From Bacteroidales bacterium (lineage in GTDB: Bacteria; Bacteroidota; Bacteroidia; Bacteroidales; UBA12077), in NCBI GenBank assembly GCA_028282585.1, contig JANQHR010000170.1:1-18365 (forward strand): a stretch of 18,365 bases of DNA, read 5' to 3'. Every line of letters starts with the position of its first letter. The first letter of the stretch is position 1. Below the pieces are notes generated by a model. The model had not been told where the DNA came from, ran no database searches, and was given only the letters and a program-made list of their open reading frames with translations. The translations under genes and the position numbers were made by a program. This document shows positions 1 to 17,600 of the stretch, piece after piece.

Positions 1-37
1 ACGCCATATGTTCAACTGGCAAATAATTGAAACTTCT

Positions 38-77
38 TAGAAATTCTATAATTCATAAAATAATTATAGAATTTCTA
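38..77. repeat. Perfect 16-bp AT-rich inverted repeat with an 8-nt spacer
   Basis: TAGAAATTCTATAATT (38-53) and AATTATAGAATTTCTA (62-77) are exact reverse complements. Function unknown (operator or terminator-like). Confidence 0.75.
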
Positions 78-100
78 TAAAATAAATTTGGTTTTATCAT

Positions 101-233
101 AGATATCGGTCCCGGCTTAGTAAATGTGCGGGTTTTCGCCTTGTTTCACTATCCGCCGTTACTAGAAACTAAAGATAACCAAAATTGTCACAATACCACT
201 ACACCCCGCATTTTTTCTGAAGCCGTGTTATGG
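101..233 (-). other. attC-like recombination site (133 bp)
   Basis: The minus strand reads CCATAAC-a-CGGCTT[C]AGAAAAAATGCGGG ... CCCGCACATTTACTAAGCCG-ggacc-GATATCT. The arms 113-132 and 205-225 are imperfectly complementary with one unpaired C (a G on the opposite strand), like the extrahelical G of attC. The R''-like ..TAAC is at 227-233. The R' position reads GAT instead of GTT. The site lies downstream of co-oriented ORFs. Confidence 0.65.
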
Positions 234-404
234 TTTGTGCCGCCAAAAACAACCCAGTCAGTTTTGCACTTAAAATCAACGAAGTTCTAAATTGTTTTAG
301 TTTTTAGAAATAGCAAATTGCTCGTAAGAGCAAAATCAAGCTCTTTTACAATTTATTGTAAATGTGCTTGGAATAAATTTACAATTATTAATAGAATTCA
401 AAAT

Positions 405-896
405 TTAATCCAAAATAACATTATTTAAACTTTTTACTGTTTTAGATTTCTTAGAAACAATCCTTTTTAAATCAAATGTTATTACGGATATAGTGTAATG
501 TTTATTTTTATTCAAATTGATTTTTTCTATGTATGATGCTAAATCAGAATGATATTCATCTAAATCAATCACTAACTTATGATTATCAAAAGGTATCAGT
601 TTAATAGATTTCTTTATCACTTCAATTGTAGTAGAATTATATCTCCAAAACAAAAATTTGTTAAAAGTTATAATATTTAAACCTTTAATATGTATGTCAT
701 GTGATCTAGGATTAATAACGTGAATATACATCAAATTATTCGAAACTTCTCCTTTCTCTGTTTCTCCATAAATCTTCTTTGGTTGAAAATTTATTCGAAT
801 GGTCTTGAAGTAATCAATAAGTTTTATAACAGCAAGTATAGTTGATAAAAATGCACCCCAAATTGCTAGAATTGTAGTTATCATATTGTTTTCCAA
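405..896 (-). CDS. Hypothetical protein with an N-terminal transmembrane helix (cassette ORF3)
   Basis: 163-aa ORF with a TTG start and an alternative ATG at 884. Hydrophobic ITTILAIWGAFLSTILAVIKLI is followed by a soluble basic domain. No family recognised. Confidence 0.7.
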   Translation of the reverse strand: MENNMITTILAIWGAFLSTILAVIKLIDYFKTIRINFQPKKIYGETEKGEVSNNLMYIHVINPRSHDIHIKGLNIITFNKFLFWRYNSTTIEVIKKSIKLIPFDNHKLVIDLDEYHSDLASYIEKINLNKNKHYTISVITFDLKRIVSKKSKTVKSLNNVILD

Positions 897-977
897 TTTC
901 TGAGTTTCATTTATAAGTTAATTAATAACATTTGCTTTAATGTCATTTTTTGAAAATTGAATATTTAAACATGAAGA

Positions 978-1310
978 TTATGAAAATCTACGTTTTAAAA
1001 TATCTTCCATAACGTCATATGATTGTTTTGTAAAAGTGTAATACCTACTTCCAATCCAACAACTAATTTGAACTTCTGAAACTATCCACAAATTATTATC
1101 TTCATCATTAAAAGTACTCTTACCATTTGAAGTACTGTGATGTTTCCACTTTTTTTCAGAAAAATCAAATACACCAGAAATAGTAATTTTACTTCTTTTA
1201 ACTTCTAAAGATACGTTTCCTAATTCTCCCATTTCAGAAGTTTCAGTATCAGTATATTCAGCGATACAATCATATCTTTTTCCGTAATAAGGGCATCTTT
1301 TTTTAAACAT
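978..1310 (-). CDS. Hypothetical protein (cassette ORF2)
   Basis: 110-aa ORF whose start overlaps the end of the upstream ORF by 8 nt, suggesting translational coupling. It looks beta-strand rich. No family recognised. Confidence 0.6.
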   Translation of the reverse strand: MFKKRCPYYGKRYDCIAEYTDTETSEMGELGNVSLEVKRSKITISGVFDFSEKKWKHHSTSNGKSTFNDEDNNLWIVSEVQISCWIGSRYYTFTKQSYDVMEDILKRRFS

Positions 1311-1656
1311 AAAATAAGTATCTAAATATGAAAAATAATGTTAAAATATCCACAAAAATAATAAACCTAACAGCTTTTGTTATACTAAAGTGTCTATACA
1401 AGATTTTATTAATTAAAAAGCTAATTGGTATAGTTAGAATAAACAATGCTATTATTATCAATGGAAAATACCACTTTATCAAAACGAACGAACCAATTAA
1501 TATTACTGGTAAGAGAAAGTAAGTTGCACGTAAAACGTAATTCCCATTTAGTAGTGGTCCACGTTGCATATCCCTACAAAAAGCATGTAAGAAATTTAGT
1601 GAAATATTAAGTAGAATTACTAAAAGATAAAAATATAAATGAACACCAAATAACAT
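1303..1656 (-). CDS. Hypothetical small integral membrane protein (cassette ORF1)
   Basis: 117-aa ORF with 3-4 hydrophobic segments separated by short basic loops. Confidence 0.6.
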   Translation of the reverse strand: MLFGVHLYFYLLVILLNISLNFLHAFCRDMQRGPLLNGNYVLRATYFLLPVILIGSFVLIKWYFPLIIIALFILTIPISFLINKILYRHFSITKAVRFIIFVDILTLFFIFRYLFYV

Positions 1657-1766
1657 AGTTTTTAATCTTTACAGTATCTTAAAATTAATTAATAACAGCA
1701 TCCTTAATCTCATAATTATCATATTAAAAATTGACAATCGAATTTAACAAATATTCGTATCAGTAA

Positions 1767-1774
1767 CAAATTTA
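1767..1774 (-). promoter_or_regulatory. Candidate Bacteroidota housekeeping promoter -7 box inside the cassette leader
   Basis: The minus strand reads TAAATTTG, matching TAnnTTTG, about 110 nt upstream of the 1656 start. A TTTG lies 15 nt further upstream (1790-1793), which is shorter than the typical spacing. Confidence 0.35.
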
Positions 1775-2051
1775 AACTCTTTTGCGTAGCAAATGTGTTT
1801 AAATTGAAATCCCAATTTTGCGAAGCAAAAAAGCGCGTTGGAAAAACTAAAACAATTTTCTATCATACCTACCAAACCAATCTCGTTAAATTCAGTATCA
1901 AAAAGCACTAATAATATATATTTTCACTGTCAAACAGCAAAATAACCAGGCTAAACGAAAAACCTGTCAGAATACTACGGAATTTCTATTAACAAAAACT
2001 GACTTACAAAGAGCAGAACTGCTCTATTTCTGAATTTTTTAGCGGCATTAA

Positions 2052-2106
2052 GCATAACTAGTTGTTAGATGGACAAAAATTCCATCTAATTGTATATAGA
2101 CGGACA
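2052..2106 (-). other. attI-like or target core site with adjacent repeated motifs
   Basis: The minus strand reads ATCTAAC-aacta-GTTATGC, i.e. RYYYAAC, a 5-nt spacer and a GTT core. Next to it are a perfect 9-bp inverted repeat TTAGATGGA/TCCATCTAA (2065-2073/2081-2089) and a direct repeat TAGAYGGACA (2066-2075, 2097-2106). Confidence 0.5.
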
Positions 2107-2249
2107 TGTTGAAAACGCCTGTAGCTCACCAATAATAAATAGTTGAGTCGTTTATGCAAAAAATAGAAAATATCCATCTTTCTAATTATAAAATTATGAT
2201 TTATTAATCAATTTCAAAATCCAAACTAAACCAAAAATTAACCTTTAAT

Positions 2250-2672
2250 TTACTTTACCTTTTTCGTTATTGGATGTTCATCTTTTAACTGCAGCAGATC
2301 CCATAAATTTCCGTATAAATCTTTAAATACGGCTACCGTCCCATAATCGGCTTCTTTAGGTTCTCTTACAAATTCAATGCCTTTGGAAAGCATTTCCTTA
2401 TAATCTCTCCAAAAATCGTCTGTATTCAGGAAAAGGAACACCCTGCCCCCGGCCTGGTTTCCTACAAATTCTTCCTGTTCGGGCTTTGAGGCCCTTGCCA
2501 GCAAAATGGTTGTTCCTGAAGAACCCGGAGGTGATACCACCACCCAGCGTTTATCCTGCTCGGGCTGGTACGTGTCCTCAATTAATTCAAAGTTTAGTTT
2601 TTGAGTATAAAATTCTATGGCTTCGTCGTAATCCCTTACTACTAAAGCGATGTGTACTATGGTTTGTTTCAA
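2250..2672 (-). CDS. VOC/glyoxalase-bleomycin resistance family protein
   Basis: HIALVVRDYDEAIEFY, RWVVV and YGTVAVFKDLYGNLWDL are typical VOC motifs. TTG start. Confidence 0.92.
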   Translation of the reverse strand: MKQTIVHIALVVRDYDEAIEFYTQKLNFELIEDTYQPEQDKRWVVVSPPGSSGTTILLARASKPEQEEFVGNQAGGRVFLFLNTDDFWRDYKEMLSKGIEFVREPKEADYGTVAVFKDLYGNLWDLLQLKDEHPITKKVK

Positions 2673-2737
2673 TTTTATGTTCTTTTTTTAATTTCTTCTA
2701 ACTCTTAATTTATATTTGAAAAATAAGTTGCTTTCTC

Positions 2738-2780
2738 ATTCTTTCATTAATGAAAGAATCAACCTGCCCGAAAGGCAAGG
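2738..2780. repeat. Palindromic intergenic element (REP-like remnant)
   Basis: Perfect 22-bp palindrome ATTCTTTCATTAATGAAAGAAT (2738-2759), followed by a GC-rich imperfect hairpin CCTGCC-CGAAA-GGCAAGG (2763-2780). Confidence 0.5.
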
Positions 2781-2838
2781 ATCGAGCGAAATGACTTCAG
2801 TCTATATACTTTCTTATTTGTTAAAAACATTCACCCTC

Positions 2839-2858
2839 TGCCTCCCATATGGGACGCA
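2839..2858. repeat. Short GC-rich palindrome (REP-like remnant)
   Basis: TGC-C-TCCCATATGGGA-C-GCA, with a perfect 12-bp core at 2843-2854. Confidence 0.4.
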
Positions 2859-2892
2859 TCTCTAAAGCGGGAACACTCCAATTTTACTTAAA

Positions 2893-3357
2893 TTAATCTA
2901 ACTGGAATAGTTGTATATAATTGCCATTATCATCATCAAAAATGGCTTCGTAGCCATAATCGGTTTTTGCCAGTTCCTTTTTAAATTTTACACCTTTACT
3001 CTTAAGCTCTTCCACTGTTTTTTGGATATTATCCGAGCTAAATGAAATAACCGGCATCCCCATTTGATATAATTCTTTTTTAAATTTCTTAGCTATTTCA
3101 ATCCCACCGGGTTCTGTAGGCTCCAGTAATAAAGTAACCCCTTCAGCATCAAGCGGCGATTTAACAATAGCAAGATAGTTTTCGGGAGAGTACATAACCT
3201 CCTCAAAGCCTAATATTTCGGTATAGAATTTAAAAGCTTTAACCGGGTCTTCAACTAAAACGCTTACCATAGCTATTTTCATCGGATGTTCGTTTTGTCC
3301 CATAGTATGTAATGAAATTAAAATGGTTATTAAGATTATTAATACAATTCTCATCAT
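2893..3357 (-). CDS. VOC/glyoxalase family protein with a predicted signal peptide
   Basis: VSVLVEDPVKAFKFYTEILGF, ELKSKGVKF and AIFDDDNGNYIQL. The N-terminus MMRIVLIILITILISLHTMG|Q looks like a Sec signal peptide. Confidence 0.88.
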   Translation of the reverse strand: MMRIVLIILITILISLHTMGQNEHPMKIAMVSVLVEDPVKAFKFYTEILGFEEVMYSPENYLAIVKSPLDAEGVTLLLEPTEPGGIEIAKKFKKELYQMGMPVISFSSDNIQKTVEELKSKGVKFKKELAKTDYGYEAIFDDDNGNYIQLFQLD

Positions 3358-10717: not shown

Positions 10718-12001
10718 ATGAAAAACAAATTATTAATCATATTATTCATCATTTTTTCAGGCTGTGAGGGAATTCTTGAATTGCAACCGACCGATTCGAT
10801 AAGTTCTGATATTGCTATTTTAAACGAAACTGATTTACAAAATACAATCAGAGGATGCTATGATGCACTGCAATTTGATGGTTACTACGGGCGATTAATG
10901 ATTGTAATTGGAGATATTGGGTCTGACAATGCTTTCAATGGTGGTACAATTTTAGAATATGACCAATTTAACAAAAATAGTGTAGAGCAAGATAACAGGT
11001 TTTTGGAAGATATCTGGACAACTCCTTACATTGCCATAAACAGGTGTAATACAGCTATTTTTCACACAAACAACTTTGATCAAATAACGGAAACCAAAAG
11101 AAATGAATATCTTGCCGAACTTCGATTTTTAAGAGCATTAAATTACTTTAACTTAACGCGTTTATTTAAGGATCTTCCGTTAAAATTAGAACCTACATTG
11201 GATACGGAAGATCTTAATGTGCCATTATCCGGTCAAAATATAATTTATGAGCAAATATTGGAAGATTTGAACTTTGCCAATAATAAAATTGCGAATACAG
11301 ATCCGTATTATGCTACGGACCTTGCTGTAAAAACGTTACTAGCTAAAGTTTACCTGGAAATCAGGGATTATGAAAAAGCTAATGATTTTGCAGAGCTTGT
11401 TATTTCAAGTGATAAAGAACTTCTTGAATCTTTTGATGAGTTATTTACCATCGAACATAATTCCGAGTCAATTTTTGAATTAAGTTTTACAGAAATTTTA
11501 ACTGATAAGAACAGGCTGGCAGAATACTGCTATCCTACCAATTTAGGAGGTAGATACGAAATAGCTCCTGAGATTAATTTAATTAACTCTTTTGAAGATG
11601 AAGATACCAGAAAGGATTTATTTTTGGGAAATACCCCGTATTGTAACAAATATGAAAGTCTTGCTTCCGGTGCCGATAATGTTTATATTTTTCGTTTAGC
11701 CGAGCTATACCTGATTCGTGCTGAAGCAAATGCACGATTGCAAAGGAATTTAACTGAAATTAATAATGATATAAATAGAATTAGGCTCAGAGCAGGTTTA
11801 AATAATATATTCTCCAGTTCGTACAGCGAATTACTGGACTTTATTGAATCTGAACGCCAACACGAATTTGCCTTTGAAGGACACAGAAGATTCGATTTGG
11901 TGAGAACCGGTAAAGCTTCTTTTGTTTTAGGTATTTCCGAAGAAGATTATTATTTTCCTATTCCATTATCGGAAATTAATACAAACAATCAAATCGATTA
12001 G
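10718..12001 (+). CDS. susD: RagB/SusD-family lipoprotein
   Basis: The start was moved to the ATG at 10718, giving lipobox MKNKLLIILFIIFSG|C. Motifs AELRFLRALNYFNL, FRLAELYLIRAEA, ERQHEFAFEGHRRFDLVR and FPIPLSEI. Confidence 0.95.
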   Translation: MKNKLLIILFIIFSGCEGILELQPTDSISSDIAILNETDLQNTIRGCYDALQFDGYYGRLMIVIGDIGSDNAFNGGTILEYDQFNKNSVEQDNRFLEDIWTTPYIAINRCNTAIFHTNNFDQITETKRNEYLAELRFLRALNYFNLTRLFKDLPLKLEPTLDTEDLNVPLSGQNIIYEQILEDLNFANNKIANTDPYYATDLAVKTLLAKVYLEIRDYEKANDFAELVISSDKELLESFDELFTIEHNSESIFELSFTEILTDKNRLAEYCYPTNLGGRYEIAPEINLINSFEDEDTRKDLFLGNTPYCNKYESLASGADNVYIFRLAELYLIRAEANARLQRNLTEINNDINRIRLRAGLNNIFSSSYSELLDFIESERQHEFAFEGHRRFDLVRTGKASFVLGISEEDYYFPIPLSEINTNNQID

Positions 12002-12006
12002 CCGCT

Positions 12007-13152
12007 ATGAAATTACAATTTGCTATAAGTACCGTGTTGATAATTCTTTTATTATCTTGTTCCAATGATGATTCTGGTTCTCCTACTCCTAGCACTCAAG
12101 CCAAATTTGTAGTTGAAATGGAAAATAATGGTATTGCACCGGCAAAGGTTAACTTTATTAATCAATCGGTAAATGCTTTAGATTATTTATGGGAATTTGG
12201 AACCGGAGAAATACTATTAACTATAAGTAAAGATACTATTTCATATGTATATGAAGATGCAGGAAGTTATACTATAACACTAAGTGTTGAATCACCTAAT
12301 CCGGAATTATATTATAATGTTTTGGAGTATGAAAAAACAATTGTAATAAGTGAAATACCGGTAAAGAGACTTTACTTTACCGATAGAGCAGAAAATAAAG
12401 TAAAATATATTGCTCTTGATGATAATTCTTTACCGGTAATAGAAGAATTTGAAAGCGCTACGTTAAACAAGCCTTATGGAATGCACATGGACACTACAAA
12501 CGGAAAATTATATGTTACCGATTATTCGGAGCAGGTAATGAATAGTTATAATTGGGATGGAACGGCACAGGAAATCTTAATGAATTCAAGCACTGAAAAT
12601 TTCGGGTCCCCGATCGGTATCATCGTAATTGGAAGTAAAATATATTGGGGAGAACCGGATGGTATTCATTGTGCCAATCTTGACGGATCAAATCCCCAGA
12701 TTTATATTCCAATATTGGGAGAATATCCACAAGATCTTACTTATGACCACATAAATAATGCTTTTTATTTTACGAATGACCTTGATCCTGAAAATGGCGG
12801 AATTTGGAAAGTCGATTTTGATGGTGGTAACTTAACGGAAATAATTCCTGATGTTTGGGGTGGAGCCATTGAAATTGATCCTGAAAATAACAGGCTGTAT
12901 TATTATATAGGTTATGAAGGAATGTATATATCGGGGCTAGATGGTAGTAATCCGATTTTATTTGATGCTTCAAATGCCGGAAAATGGGCATGGGGAATGG
13001 CTATTGATAAAGAAGGTGGTAAAATTTATTATCCAAATCGTGTGGATCTGACCATAATGAGAGCAAACCTGGACGGAAGTAATGTGGAGATTTTTATACC
13101 CTCCTCAGCAGATATTAATCCTAACGCAATGACGATTGATACATACAGATGA
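12007..13152 (+). CDS. Lipoprotein with a PKD domain and a six-bladed YWTD/LDL-receptor-class-B-like beta-propeller
   Basis: Lipobox LLLS|CSNDD. PKD-like VNFINQS..YLWEFGTG..YEDAGSYTITLSV. Repeats LYFTD, LYVTD, IYWGE, FYFTN, LYYYI and IYYPN, several followed by an (A)NLDGSN-like motif. Confidence 0.85.
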   Translation: MKLQFAISTVLIILLLSCSNDDSGSPTPSTQAKFVVEMENNGIAPAKVNFINQSVNALDYLWEFGTGEILLTISKDTISYVYEDAGSYTITLSVESPNPELYYNVLEYEKTIVISEIPVKRLYFTDRAENKVKYIALDDNSLPVIEEFESATLNKPYGMHMDTTNGKLYVTDYSEQVMNSYNWDGTAQEILMNSSTENFGSPIGIIVIGSKIYWGEPDGIHCANLDGSNPQIYIPILGEYPQDLTYDHINNAFYFTNDLDPENGGIWKVDFDGGNLTEIIPDVWGGAIEIDPENNRLYYYIGYEGMYISGLDGSNPILFDASNAGKWAWGMAIDKEGGKIYYPNRVDLTIMRANLDGSNVEIFIPSSADINPNAMTIDTYR

Positions 13153-13184
13153 AAAATGCTGTTGGAAAAAACCAACAGCATTTT
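13152..13184. terminator. Bidirectional intrinsic terminator between the convergent operons
   Basis: AAAAATGCTGTTGG-AAAAA-CCAACAGCATTTTT is a perfect 14-bp inverted repeat with T-tracts on both strands. Confidence 0.92.
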
Positions 13185-13201
13185 TATTTAAACCTTCAAA
13201 A

Positions 13202-14590
13202 TTATTCCTGATCCCACCAAAACCTATCTTGTAAATTCGGTAATGGTTTAGGAATGTTTGGATTATAAATTCTTTCACTTTGTGGATATGGTAACCTTCT
13301 TGGTATTTCTCCTCCGGGATTTTGATTATGATCTCCACCTTCGTTTGGAGTTAAAACCGGATAGCCAGTTCTTCGATAGTCGGTCCATGACTCAATACTG
13401 GCATACATAGCAATATATTTTTGCGTAATAATAGTTTCAAGATCATCATTAAAACTACCGGTTAAAATCACATTATCCGCAATGTATTGATTTATAATAG
13501 TGTCATGTATTGCATTACCCGACATTCTTTTCATATTCGCATAAACAGCTTCATTTAAAACATTTTGTACCTCAGGATCAATTGTATTTAACCTTAATCG
13601 TGCTTCTGCTTCGATAAATTTTTGCTCGAAAAAAGTCATTAAATGAACCGGTGATTCCGGTGAAGAATAATACCTGTTTTCAATATTTGACACACCGAAT
13701 TTCTTAATATAAAAAAGCGTATCCCTGGGATCATCCAGAATAAACATTAAAGAAGTAAAAAAATCATTTGGCTCAATATAACCTAATCTGGAATATGAAT
13801 AAAACGGACTTTGCTCAGATGCCGAATAACCATATTGGTATATCATATCATCTTCGTTTGACAACATTCCGTTTGTAACTGCATTCAAAGCTGCCTGGCT
13901 TGGGTTATAAGACAAATCAACTTCTCGCTTGGTTAAATGCATATAATATCTTGCTTTTAAAGCATAGGCTGTTTGTTTCCACTTAGCCATGTTACCTCCA
14001 AAAATCAAATCATCGGCTCCCGGTTTAATTCCCTCATTTTCCGTGTCAAAAGCAACAATTGCTTCATCCAATAATTGTTGAATAGTTTCATATATCAATT
14101 CTTGGGAATCATAGCGAGGATTTAAATTTGTAGAACTCTGTAATGCTTCAGAATATGGAACGTCTCCCCAAAGTGAAGTAACATTTCCTAAGCATAAAGC
14201 CATTAAAGTTTTTCCAATTCCAATGTAGTGAGGAACATAACCATTCTCCTCCGCAAACATCAACATTTGTTTTATATTGATCATTGGTCCATCATAATAA
14301 TCCTGAAAATTCCAGTCAGCATACAAAGCTTCATCAACAATATAATTTTGTACTGGTAATGGATGATTCTCAATGCCTTCATAATATTGAACAAATATTC
14401 CGCTCATAACTTGAGTAGTACCTATCATTAATCGGGCTAATGATTCTTGATTATAAGGAAGCAATACATTTACCGGTACTTCGGTTACATCATTTTTATT
14501 AACATTGGCTTCTTCTAATTCACAGGAATTAAACGAAATTATTATAAATGATGCAATCATTAAGAATGTATAATTTATTATCTTTTTCAT
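13202..14590 (-). CDS. susD: SusD/RagB-family lipoprotein (SusD-like_2 type)
   Basis: Lipobox ISFNS|C, LWGDVPYSEAL, PRYDSQELIY, IITQKYIAMY, ESWTDYRRTGYP, IPRRLPYPQSE and RFWWD. Confidence 0.94.
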   Translation of the reverse strand: MKKIINYTFLMIASFIIISFNSCELEEANVNKNDVTEVPVNVLLPYNQESLARLMIGTTQVMSGIFVQYYEGIENHPLPVQNYIVDEALYADWNFQDYYDGPMINIKQMLMFAEENGYVPHYIGIGKTLMALCLGNVTSLWGDVPYSEALQSSTNLNPRYDSQELIYETIQQLLDEAIVAFDTENEGIKPGADDLIFGGNMAKWKQTAYALKARYYMHLTKREVDLSYNPSQAALNAVTNGMLSNEDDMIYQYGYSASEQSPFYSYSRLGYIEPNDFFTSLMFILDDPRDTLFYIKKFGVSNIENRYYSSPESPVHLMTFFEQKFIEAEARLRLNTIDPEVQNVLNEAVYANMKRMSGNAIHDTIINQYIADNVILTGSFNDDLETIITQKYIAMYASIESWTDYRRTGYPVLTPNEGGDHNQNPGGEIPRRLPYPQSERIYNPNIPKPLPNLQDRFWWDQE

Positions 14591-14607
14591 TTTTAATCTA
14601 TTTATTA

Positions 14608-17600
14608 TTAAAAGTTAACAAGAAGATTAATTTCATAACTTCGCGTATTTGGCATATTAAAATAATCGCGGCCCAAACTGTTTGAAGCGCCTGATAAATT
14701 CGTTTCAGGGTCGATTCCCGAATAATCGGTGAATAATAATAAGTTTCTTCCACTCAACCCAATACTTAAGTTGGATACAGGTATTTTTTCAAACCATTTT
14801 GAAGGTAAGTTATACGATAATGAAACTTCTCTTAAACGAATATACGACCCATCTTCAATATAGGCCTCTGATAGTCCTGCTAATCCACCTTGTCTGCTAT
14901 AATACGATCGGTCTCTTTTTACCGGCACTTCATTCGGCAGTCCGGTATTTACATTTACACCATCGAAAATAAAATCTTCATCGCGGTTTTCTGTATATTT
15001 ATGAGTTCCAAGGGATGTCATTACGCCACGTGTTCCGTTAAATACATCTCCACCCTCTTTTATATCAATTACAGCGGTTAAACTTAAGCCTTTATAAGAA
15101 AAAGTATTTCTAAGCCCCATTATAAAATCAGGATTTGGATCACCAACAATACCGGCCTCAGTATCAATTAAAGGATACCCTTCATCATCCACTAATACAT
15201 CGCCATTTTCGTTTCTCAAAAACCTTCCGCCATATATTACTCCAAAAGGTTCGCCTTCGATTGCAACGGAGCGGGTGCTGCTTAATCCTGTAGTTGGGAA
15301 CTCAAATAGCGGAATCTCTTCTGGTAAATCCTCTACAATGTTTTTGTTTTTTGAAAAATTAACCGTTAAATCCCAGATAAAATCTTTAGTTTCAACAGGA
15401 GTTGCATACATCTGTATTTCAAATCCTTTATTTGAAATAATACCAGAGTTTAATACCATTTGCGGATATCCGGATGAGCTTGGAATATTTGCATCAATAA
15501 TTTGATTATCACTTTCAGAATGATAATAAGCAAAATCAACTCCTAACCTGTTTTGAAAAAATTTAAGCTCAACTCCTGCTTCATAAGATATTGTTTCTTC
15601 GGGATTAATTCCATTATTTCCAATCAACCCCCTTGTTCTGTAAGCAACCTGTCCTTGAATACCACCGTCAATAGCCTGAAAGTAATTCTGTAAACTATAA
15701 GGATCGGCGTCATATCCTCCCCTTGCGACAGATGCTCTTAATTTACCAAAACTAAAAAAAGGTATTCTTTCTTTAAAACGAAAGGCTTCGGAAAATATAA
15801 AGCTCAAATTCACGGAAGGATAATCAAACCAGTTTTTACTTGCAGGTAAAGTCGAAGACCAGTCTATTCTGTAAGTGGTATTAAAGTATAAATAATCGTT
15901 ATAAGATAATCTAATATCGTAATATGCACCTACTCTTTTATACTGAGACTCTGAATCGTCGCCAGCCGACTCTTCGGTATTCGAAATATCGTAATAGTTT
16001 GGTAAAACAAATTTATCACCTCGCTGATATATATAATATGTGTTTCTTGTAACATAATTATTACCTAACAAGGCTGTTAAGTTTAGCTTATCTGTAATAT
16101 CTTTTTCTAAAGTTAAGATTAAGTCGGAGTTGGTTGATTGAAATTCATAAGTACTAATATTTATATACCCATCAGGAGTATCACTTGAATTATTATCCAA
16201 ATAATTGCTTCTTTTATCGGTGTAATAATCCAATCCCAAACGATACATAATGTTTAACCATGGAGTAAATTTGTAATCAATCTGCGTATTACCCATCAAT
16301 CTGTTAACTGTTGAAAAAGCCTTATTTTTATTTATGGACCAATACGGATTATCATAGTTTGGAAAGTAATTTCGTTGTGTACCATCTGGTAACATATATG
16401 CGCTTTCGTCGTTAACCGGATCGCCAGATCCGTTCGTAATGTCAAATGTTGGTGTAACGCGCATCAAACCAACCATAACAGCAGATAAATTGCTTCCCTT
16501 TTGCATAAAAGTACCATCTGAATTAGCATAAGTGGCTTTCCCTGCAATTTTAAGCTTTTCACTTATTTGCATATCACCATTAATTTTAAAGGTTGTACGT
16601 TTAAACTCGCTATTAGGAACAATACCCGATTGATTTACATGTCCTGTAGAAATATGAAAATTACCCTTTTCATCACCTCCGCTCATGCTTAGGTAAGTAT
16701 CACTTTTAATTGCAGTCTGGAAAAAATCATTCACGTTTTCATATGGAACAACGCGCTGAGAAGTTGCCGTTGGGTCACTCATACCGACTATTCTTCCATT
16801 TTGATCCAACAAATAATCGGTGGCACCATCATAACGTAAAGTGTCAATTAGTGGCCCCCAGCTTGTATTCACCGTACTTGAATATTCAACAGCTCCCGTT
16901 GATGTATTATAAAATCCCTGCGCATATCTATATTGCTTTTCCGGTAATTTATTAACTTCATCAAAGCCAATAGAAGTTCTAAAAGTTATTTGTTTTCTAT
17001 CAGTTCCTCTCCCCTCACCTGATTTTGTTGTGATAATAATGGCACCATTTGCTGCCATTATACCATATAATGCAGTTGCTGTTGCTCCTTTAAGTACAGT
17101 TACTGATTCGATATCATTAGGATTTATATCAATTGCCCGGTTCGAATGATCAACATAATACGACCCGTCATAACTGTTATCTACAGGTACACCATCAACC
17201 ACAAACAAAGGCGAATTCGATCTTCCAAGCGAAGTTCTTCCCCTGATTACAATATTAGAAGAAGCGCCCGGAGTACCTGATGAGCTGGTAATTTCAACAC
17301 CGGCAACCTTAGAACTTAATGAATTAACAATATTAGGCTGGCTGGTTGCAATTAATTCATCTCCTTTTACCTCCTGGGCCGAATAACCTAATGATTTTTT
17401 CTCTCTTTTAATACCAATCGCTGTTACAATAACTTCATCCAAAGATTTTGTATCCGGCCTTAAATCCATATTAATAATAGTTTGAGGGCCAACAGTCATC
17501 TCCTCTTTTATATAGCCAACGTAACTATATATAAGGATATCTTCGACAGAAGTAACAAAAACGGAATAATTACCATCTATATCCGTTGTTGTTCCTATGG

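Follow-up and report, generated by a model that had tools for sequence, protein, structure and literature searches.

In integrons, the closest described systems, canonical attC sites are 57–142 nucleotides (nt) long, carry heptanucleotide R boxes and undergo exchange at R' (PMC2727003). According to the IntegronFinder 2.0 article, integrons are rare in Bacteroidetes, where earlier records were limited to In0 and one complete integron is reported, in Salinibacter ruber (PMC9024848). Here we describe an integron-like arrangement in a stretch of 18,365 nt, referred to as the window, which is the whole of contig C34 in the 4.9-Mb, 173-contig genome (G000) of an uncultured Bacteroidales bacterium in which SusC/SusD genes are present. 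The first 2.2 kb of the window, with about 25 % G+C, contain at positions 227–2058 a single minus-strand gene cassette belonging to an integron-like array. Each of its non-coding ends carries a copy of one conserved module, or arm, and the two copies are mirrored so that both point into the cassette. This mirrored-arm class, shared by cassettes with unrelated cargo, is the new element of the present analysis; no description of mirrored-arm or two-armed cassettes was found in the open-access literature. Our overall reading, to which we assign a probability of roughly 60 %, is that the cassette joins an extended recombination stem at its outermost ends to mirrored homologous arms that would act as expression and insulation modules.

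A preliminary description of this DNA had noticed that the two ends of the cassette are complementary in several colinear blocks and had proposed that they fold together into a long panhandle. The coordinates of the blocks were confirmed. Block 1 joins 227–249 to 2036–2058 (19 of 23 positions complementary), block 2 joins 256–265 to 1995–2004 (10 of 10), block 3 joins 289–305 to 1842–1858 (17 of 17), and block 4 consists of a TTGC...GCAA hairpin in each flank, at 318–333 and 1816–1830. They were located by seed-chain analysis, a global MAFFT alignment of the left flank with the reverse-complemented right flank having missed them. Block 3 was listed independently in an inverted-repeat search of the window, and its 17-mer, with up to two mismatches allowed, has just these two sites there.

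In a region of about 25 % G+C with many short inverted matches, chance has to be considered first. However, the 17-nt longest match was equalled in none of 1000 dinucleotide shuffles of both flanks, whose maximum was 14–16 nt, and the arms recur in 11 genomes; chance is thereby refuted, and the probability we leave to it is practically nil. The score of the colinear chain was equalled in 0, 1 and 8 of 1000 dinucleotide shuffles at k = 6, 7 and 8, respectively, and the observed chain of 41 exceeds the maximum of 32 reached in 80 real-sequence controls drawn from elsewhere in the window. Co-folding of the flanks, which the preliminary description had suggested as a check, gains −22.2 kcal/mol with DNA parameters (shuffles −9.4, standard deviation 2.0) and −27.9 kcal/mol with RNA parameters (shuffles −10.9, standard deviation 3.5), in both cases beyond all 60 shuffles. 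In the predicted dimer blocks 1–3 form intermolecular helices, and with DNA parameters block 4 remains as local hairpins. A multi-branched scaffold of the kind envisaged is therefore thermodynamically possible; the comparative data presented below do not support it.

The end coordinates 227 and 2058 are the R'' and R' core sites of the cassette. Its flanks are, as had been remarked, uncommonly long for an integron cassette. The cassette and its immediate surroundings comprise the following features, in which ORF stands for open reading frame and aa for amino acids.

1–106, minus strand: 5' portion of the cassette that follows downstream, truncated where the contig ends; a perfect 16-bp hairpin occupies 38–77.
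103–237, minus strand: attC-like site, with R'' CCATAAC at 233→227 and a degenerate R' (GATAT) whose G is at 107.
227–249, minus strand: outer arm on the R'' side, left half of block 1, 19/23 complementary to 2036–2058.
252–398, plus strand: trailer arm (T-type), pointing inward, with the 18-mer at 288–305, hairpin 1 at 318–333 and hairpin 2 at 337–370 (nhmmer E = 1.4e-22).
405–896, minus strand: cargo ORF3, 163 aa, with an N-terminal hydrophobic segment and no Pfam family.
978–1310, minus strand: cargo ORF2, 110 aa, no Pfam family.
1303–1656, minus strand: cargo ORF1, 117 aa, hydrophobic (membrane-like), no Pfam family, starting 90 nt past the leader arm.
1734–1913, minus strand: leader arm (L-type), pointing inward, with the 18-mer at 1842–1859, hairpin 1 at 1816–1830 and hairpin 2 at 1769–1805 (nhmmer E = 2e-30).
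1860–2035, minus strand: segment X, a conserved part of the leader that separates the 5' end from the leader arm; its hairpin (2010–2025) precedes a T-rich stretch on the minus strand.
2036–2058, minus strand: 5' end of the cassette, R' GTTATGC plus outer arm (right half of block 1), with the crossover G at 2058.
2059–2224, minus strand: attI-like segment, a second copy of the stretch from the recombinase stop to the first cassette on contig C169.

The fold of the trailer arm has a z score of −4.4, equalled in none of 200 shuffles. Nine copies of segment X were aligned, and copies are 75–83 % identical throughout the genus. Since segment X has a 14-nt stretch in common with one attC, it was considered as a decayed attC, a candidate rejected with an attC profile E value of 1.3 and a fold z score of −0.7. 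No tRNA was found in the window, and Rfam yielded no family at gathering score there, with only chance-level matches (E 0.65–2.9) in 1–2300. The phage collection contained no DNA similar to the leader, and the plasmid collection none similar to attC plus trailer.

The attC-like site belongs to a family of imperfect palindromes of about 135 nt, built by iterated nhmmer, with 35 matches in the genome; a scan with a 15-nt centre motif was discarded (102 matches, mostly spurious). Besides the window site at 103–237, the sites form arrays of a single orientation on contigs C55, C77, C170, C64, C85, C118 and C169. The single-contig, complete genome of a member of the same genus (G008) has 52 attC-like sites in 80 kb. 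In both genomes the boxes, for G008 placed with hmmalign, are xxxTAAC and GTTAxxx. In the minus-strand reading of the window the copies run from ..yATAAC through an inner stem, whose sequence varies between copies, to ..CCGTTAT. Arm changes between the attC of the window and that of C64 are compensatory, the window site folds as single-stranded DNA (ssDNA) into an L''/L' stem, and repeat breakpoints fall between the G and the TT of the boxes. The same cassettes are found at different array positions, an indirect sign of recombinase-dependent movement as circles. Both flanks of the window cassette are repeated elsewhere in the genome, and the homology of its 5' end with C169 begins at GCATAAC. 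Window positions 1–114 differ from C64:79–192 by two mismatches and are preceded there by a different attC, within which identity falls sharply, so that one and the same cassette follows two different cassettes in the assembly. Cassettes without a long ORF recur as well: a 486-nt cassette (C169:1243–1857) is present on at least six contigs of the genome at 90–95 % identity, with repeats on C55, C170, C36, C85 and C138, and in the G008 array (L034–L037) 11 cassettes of 356–368 nt with near-identical ends are scattered over 80 kb.

Contig C169 also encodes, at 2004–3134, a 376-aa tyrosine recombinase, co-oriented with the cassettes and upstream of them, its 3' end facing the array. The protein scores 214 bits against the integron integrase model TIGR02249, below the cut-off of 265, and leaves model positions 179–237, the IntI-specific insert, unmatched; about 16 residues stand in their place. 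Its best family is the XerA-type NF040815 (221 bits, cut-off 220), its best solved relative is XerA (5hxy), and it has an N-terminal extension, the alignment with Xer and IntI starting only at residue ~95–100. In G008 an orthologue with 73 % identity is encoded at C1:1398548–1399666. The fetched 80 kb with 52 attC-like sites (1410001–1490000) begin about 10 kb downstream of it on the same strand, and the G008 array is therefore probably longer than 80 kb. The system works like integron cassettes and differs from integrons in the IntI-specific domain and in the 7-nt limit on end pairing. No description of such a combination of recombinase and sites was found in the open-access literature.

Window positions 2045–2224, which include the last 14 nt of the cassette 5' end, are 95.6 % identical to C169:1845–2024. 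Since they copy the attI-like stretch of C169, the minus-strand segment 2057→108 represents the first cassette beside an attI-like segment. The attI-like stretch occurs twice in the genome, beside the recombinase and, in the window, beside a glyoxalase-family gene; the final ~20 nt of the recombinase coding frame are part of the window copy. One unitig of the likely source read set spans this stretch at about twice the single-copy depth and branches to both neighbours on each side, which means that the pairing of the cassette with this attI-like copy rests on the assembler.

According to the preliminary description, the end complementarity was not explained by attC. For block 1 this was wrong, since the block continues the attC R''/R' box outward, is cassette-specific and is found array-wide. 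Among 23 cassettes of the genome, positions 6–25 of the 5' end match the flank of the cassette's own R'' at 8.9 of 20 positions, compared with 5.9 in 506 non-self pairs. A larger set was obtained from 69 sites in G008 and a second same-genus genome, G003 (L034–L039); with cassettes containing N, lying at contig changes or not starting with GTT left out, it comprises 64 cassettes. Sixty of them are identical to their own R'' at all of positions 1–7. Self matches amount to 2.89 of 3 at positions 5–7 (cross 1.03) and to 9.69 of 18 at positions 8–25 (cross 5.26), both equalled in none of 5000 permutations, and drop to 5.97 against 5.64 at positions 26–45 (501 of 5000 permutations as high or higher). 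The excess persists in the 52 cassettes that remain once redundant and two-armed ones are removed (9.6 versus 5.4).

Position by position, self pairing in the 64 cassettes is 91–100 % at 1–9, 17 % and 2 % at 10 and 11, 84–91 % at 12–15 and 52–72 % at 16–19, and reaches background from about position 20. The gap at 10–11 is a fixed mismatch: in most cassettes the 5' arm has AA where the reverse-complemented R'' flank has TG. A dinucleotide kept unpaired in this way may serve for recognition. The 19/23 block of the window follows the family pattern, including the mismatch. When its ends are joined as in a circle, the window junction folds as one continuous stem (−33.0/−33.7 kcal/mol), while in the array context it folds at −25.5/−20.9 kcal/mol and the outer stem is absent. 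Block 1 is therefore an outward extension of the attC R box that travels with the cassette. In this system the first 16–19 nt of a cassette can pair with the stretch ending in its own R'' and so lengthen the recombination hairpin; because the cassette ends pair with each other, this outer stem would close only in the free circle. The longer duplex arm outside the cleavage point probably serves the Xer-like recombinase.

Beyond block 1 the complementarity comes from the arms. The arm module is about 150–190 nt long and consists of the 18-mer AAAATTGTTTTAGTTTTT followed by hairpin 1 and hairpin 2, the copies at both ends pointing into the cassette. The genome contains six arm copies, including a second leader–trailer pair on contig C83, and with one mismatch allowed the 18-mer has three matches in it, all within arms. 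A search of 26 fetched stretches with an arm profile gave 62 matches, which form 27 convergent pairs in 11 same-genus genomes plus 8 singles, some of them weak or at contig ends. DNA of the leader unit (~1764–2046), of the attC-plus-trailer unit (~103–370) or of both was matched in 20 of 24 same-genus genomes, and 16 genomes drawn from other families of the order gave no match. A 25-mer from the leader arm occurs exactly in 19 public-genome stretches, all from Bacteroidales/Bacteroidota metagenome-assembled genomes, the one exception being a 5.4-kb contig that was binned elsewhere.

The position of the arms relative to the recombination sites is fixed. The trailer arm overlaps attC by 16 nt in 25 of the 27 pairs, and the leader arm begins 132–137 nt past an upstream attC in 15; in the other 12 no attC precedes the leader, two of these being truncated at contig ends. 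Between the arms lie 237–5896 nt. Two-armed cassettes are often first or solitary, and one of them lies about 500 kb from the main array of G008, where 4 clear arm pairs occur among 51 cassettes in 80 kb. One two-armed unit (L053 in G016:C57) has no attC at all: at 2680–2725 a perfect hairpin with a 22-bp stem adjoins its trailer arm instead, no attC is present beyond its leader end either, and it resembles a solitary or remodelled cassette.

If leader and trailer had been selected to pair with each other, the two arms of a cassette should match better than arms from different cassettes. They do not. In 26 pairs, one weak pair of the 27 having been dropped, identity over 210 model columns is 0.458 between a leader and its own trailer and 0.479 between that leader and the trailers of other cassettes, with 4932 of 5000 permutations as high or higher; a first set of 10 arm pairs had given the same outcome. 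Leaders resemble leaders (0.68) and trailers resemble trailers (0.66) more than leaders resemble trailers (0.46–0.48). The 18-mer carries at most four substitutions in both copies in 25 of the 26 pairs, the exception being the C83 trailer, and in 25 of 26 the leader and trailer copies are identical at 15–18 of 18 positions. Block 3 thus owes its pairing only to the conserved sequence that the 18-mer has in either arm, which leaves hardly any variation with which to test pairing as such; in the C83 cassette the 17-mer block is only about 11/17 complementary. In the zone of block 2, 25 cassettes give self and cross scores of 6.96 and 6.89 (1842 of 5000 permutations as high or higher), the window scoring highest, and block 2 is specific to the window cassette.

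Block 4 consists of two local hairpins that are kept with compensatory changes. Pairs were counted on named structures, since RNAalifold run on the gappy arm alignments gave empty or near-empty structures. In the 16 of 26 trailer arms that lie inside single loci, 85.9 % of cells are paired, compared with 28–51 % in slid controls, and in 18 leader arms 87.3 % (slid controls 21–48 %; 5 of 500 shuffles as high or higher), percentages that are biased upward because the structures were derived from the window's own fold. The trailer hairpins show 19 double-change cells, and their covariation score is 0.215 against 0.106; neither value is equalled in any of 500 shuffles. Read on the opposite strand they are 87.5 % paired, and double-change cells number 19–21 depending on the strand, again beyond all 500 shuffles. 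Double changes are few in the leader arms, since there is little variation there.

These results bear directly on the panhandle of the preliminary description, a pairing of leader and trailer as an ssDNA or RNA scaffold; formed through blocks 1–3, it would present attC or mark the cassette for recombination. The co-fold gain lies far past the shuffles and uses blocks 1–3, the pairing of block 1 is real and cassette-specific, the 18-mer stays complementary in nearly all pairs, and one G008 pair (p03) carries the same two substitutions in both arms, as pairing or concerted evolution would produce. However, the homologues give no cassette-specific or compensatory pairing beyond ~19 nt, own arms are no more alike than others, block 2 is absent from most homologues and the C83 block has only the ~11/17 complementarity just mentioned. 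Furthermore, the local hairpins would compete for block 4, and loops of 0.24–5.9 kb separate the arms. We consider a true long-range panhandle improbable. With no better match between own arms and no conservation of block 2, a selected panhandle is unsupported while the accompanying idea of a reusable chassis holds: the 27 arm pairs in 11 genomes enclose unrelated cargo, as expected if the same flanks surround different ORFs. The arms are conserved for their own sequence and local structure and not for mutual pairing.

What, then, do the arms do? One possibility is that they are ends recognized by a protein, either as accessory (arm-type) sites for the N-terminal ~95 residues of the recombinase or for a host factor, which would enhance recombination of the two-armed class, or as terminal inverted repeats of a non-autonomous carrier by which genes would be loaded into cassettes. 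The near-invariant inverted 18-mer at fixed distances from the core sites and its restriction to arms in the genome are what such ends would look like, the recombinase does have an N-terminal extension, and the frequent first or lone position of two-armed cassettes, 12 of 27 without upstream attC and one ~500 kb away in G008, would fit as well. On the other hand, with just 4 clear pairs among the 51 G008 cassettes, only a minority is armed, and the arms are therefore not needed for recombination in general. As to a carrier, no transposase family was detected in 15 cargo proteins of six two-armed cassettes (G000, G003, G008) or in the three ORFs of the window, and no convincing target duplication flanks the window 17-mers, which have just the 3-nt TCT on both sides. 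The fixed register of the arms with attC and X is also unlike an independently inserting element. Recognition ends are, in our view, an unlikely explanation of the arms. A further idea, which we put forward tentatively and with a similarly low degree of belief, is that the flanks form a gene-capture and delivery chassis, with R' arm, X and L arm on one side and T arm and attC on the other, in which unrelated genes are loaded between the 18-mers and whose insertion is favoured at first or solitary positions via protein binding or pairing of the 18-mers.

The cargo itself is diverse. While the window cassette carries three small minus-strand ORFs without Pfam families, other two-armed cassettes contain FtsK-gamma/HNH, TonB_C/TPR, small lipoprotein-like ORFs, DUF4386, an SMC_N-like ATPase with PRTase and HAD or, in G008 (L035:16288–17394), a 368-aa protein of the PF00144 family (beta-lactamase/transpeptidase-like). 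In seven of eight cassettes from G008 and G003 the cargo reads from the leader arm, starting 44–219 nt past it and ending just before the trailer arm. The eighth (G3d) carries an antisense operon, which makes up its whole cargo, begins 142 nt past the trailer arm and encodes a CarboxypepD_reg-domain protein, a flavodoxin and an AraC/TPR regulator. The C83 cassette (L019) contains a convergent pair, an AAA ATPase of 338 aa (11902–12918, plus strand) and an S8 subtilase-family protein of 819 aa (12915–15374, minus strand), each gene beginning just past one arm.

Inverted repeats flanking a cargo that is antisense in G3d and convergent in C83 could suggest that recombination at the 18-mers flips the segment as a switch. 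However, the cassette with antisense cargo keeps L-type hairpins on the leader side and T-type hairpins on the trailer side, and a crossover at the 18-mers would have swapped them. In addition, contigs of the likely source run (X1) contain no inversion joints; joints at ~304–370/1768–1842 come only from unrelated sediment runs (X2, X3), with sides of 23–35 nt. These sediment-run joints were not used as evidence for inversion, being indistinguishable from related arm copies of other organisms. We regard an invertible segment as very unlikely.

The reading we prefer, drawn from motifs and geometry, is that the arms probably serve as modules for expression and insulation. The conserved 5' leader (X plus L-type arm) and 3' trailer (T-type arm plus attC) would frame the cargo. 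A pattern scan found a terminator-like element at 333→318 on the minus strand, and on the cargo strand each hairpin of the trailer consensus is followed by a run of T; such terminator-type hairpins at the 3' end would insulate the cassette. Promoter or leader functions would face inward from both ends, and we propose that cargo could therefore work either way round and away from the array promoter. This reading draws on the start of cargo shortly past the leader arm, on the genes of G3d and C83 that begin past the trailer arm, and on the hairpin and T run with which X begins. The frequent occurrence of two-armed cassettes in first or lone position fits units that are independent of that promoter.

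A number of points weigh against this interpretation. The promoter and terminator roles are read from motifs and geometry, and a search for RNA runs containing the stretch listed none. Support for the hairpins hardly differs between the strands (85.9 % versus 87.5 %), the hairpins would suit RNA or DNA, and the near-invariant 18-mer resembles a protein-binding site more than a generic promoter or terminator. The trailer arm of the window cassette is directed at the 3' end of ORF3, with no gene downstream of it. The matching substitutions of pair p03 and the co-fold energies, which favour the panhandle, point the other way as well. Finally, the genomes are close kin and counts across them are not independent.

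The arrangement touches on two open questions, the origin of integron cassettes and the expression of genes far from the array promoter. An uncultured Bacteroidales lineage packs unrelated genes in one conserved mirrored-arm frame. If the arms are expression and insulation modules, this frame would be a naturally occurring, portable expression cassette for Bacteroidota. Arms that are recognition sites would bear on cassette genesis and on how an Xer-like enzyme handles folded sites, and a true gene-capture chassis would afford a first view of cassette making in an integron-like system. There is also a more general caution, in that colinear end complementarity can stem from conserved mirrored modules and does not require a selected long-range fold.

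How does the system compare with those already described? Like the sedentary chromosomal integrons of, for example, Vibrio, it has co-oriented arrays, lineage-specific attC palindromes, an adjacent tyrosine recombinase gene, a crossover between G and TT, and cassettes whose first bases complement their own R''. In contrast to them, its recombinase lacks the IntI insert, scores below the TIGR02249 cut-off and is co-oriented with an array that follows its 3' end; end pairing extends over 16–19 nt with a fixed 2-nt mismatch instead of 7 nt, and some cassettes carry long conserved arms. The promoter-bearing and gene-less promoter cassettes of chromosomal integrons likewise bring their own expression signals far from the array promoter, whereas here a homologous module stands at both ends, mirrored and shared across unrelated cargo, and its promoter role is a prediction. 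Elements with terminal inverted repeats, such as miniature inverted-repeat transposable elements, foldback elements and mobile insertion cassettes, resemble the two-armed cassettes in their conserved inverted arms of ~150 nt round variable cargo. They differ in that the arms described here lie in fixed register with attC and the R' junction, the outermost complementary part being the recombination core itself.

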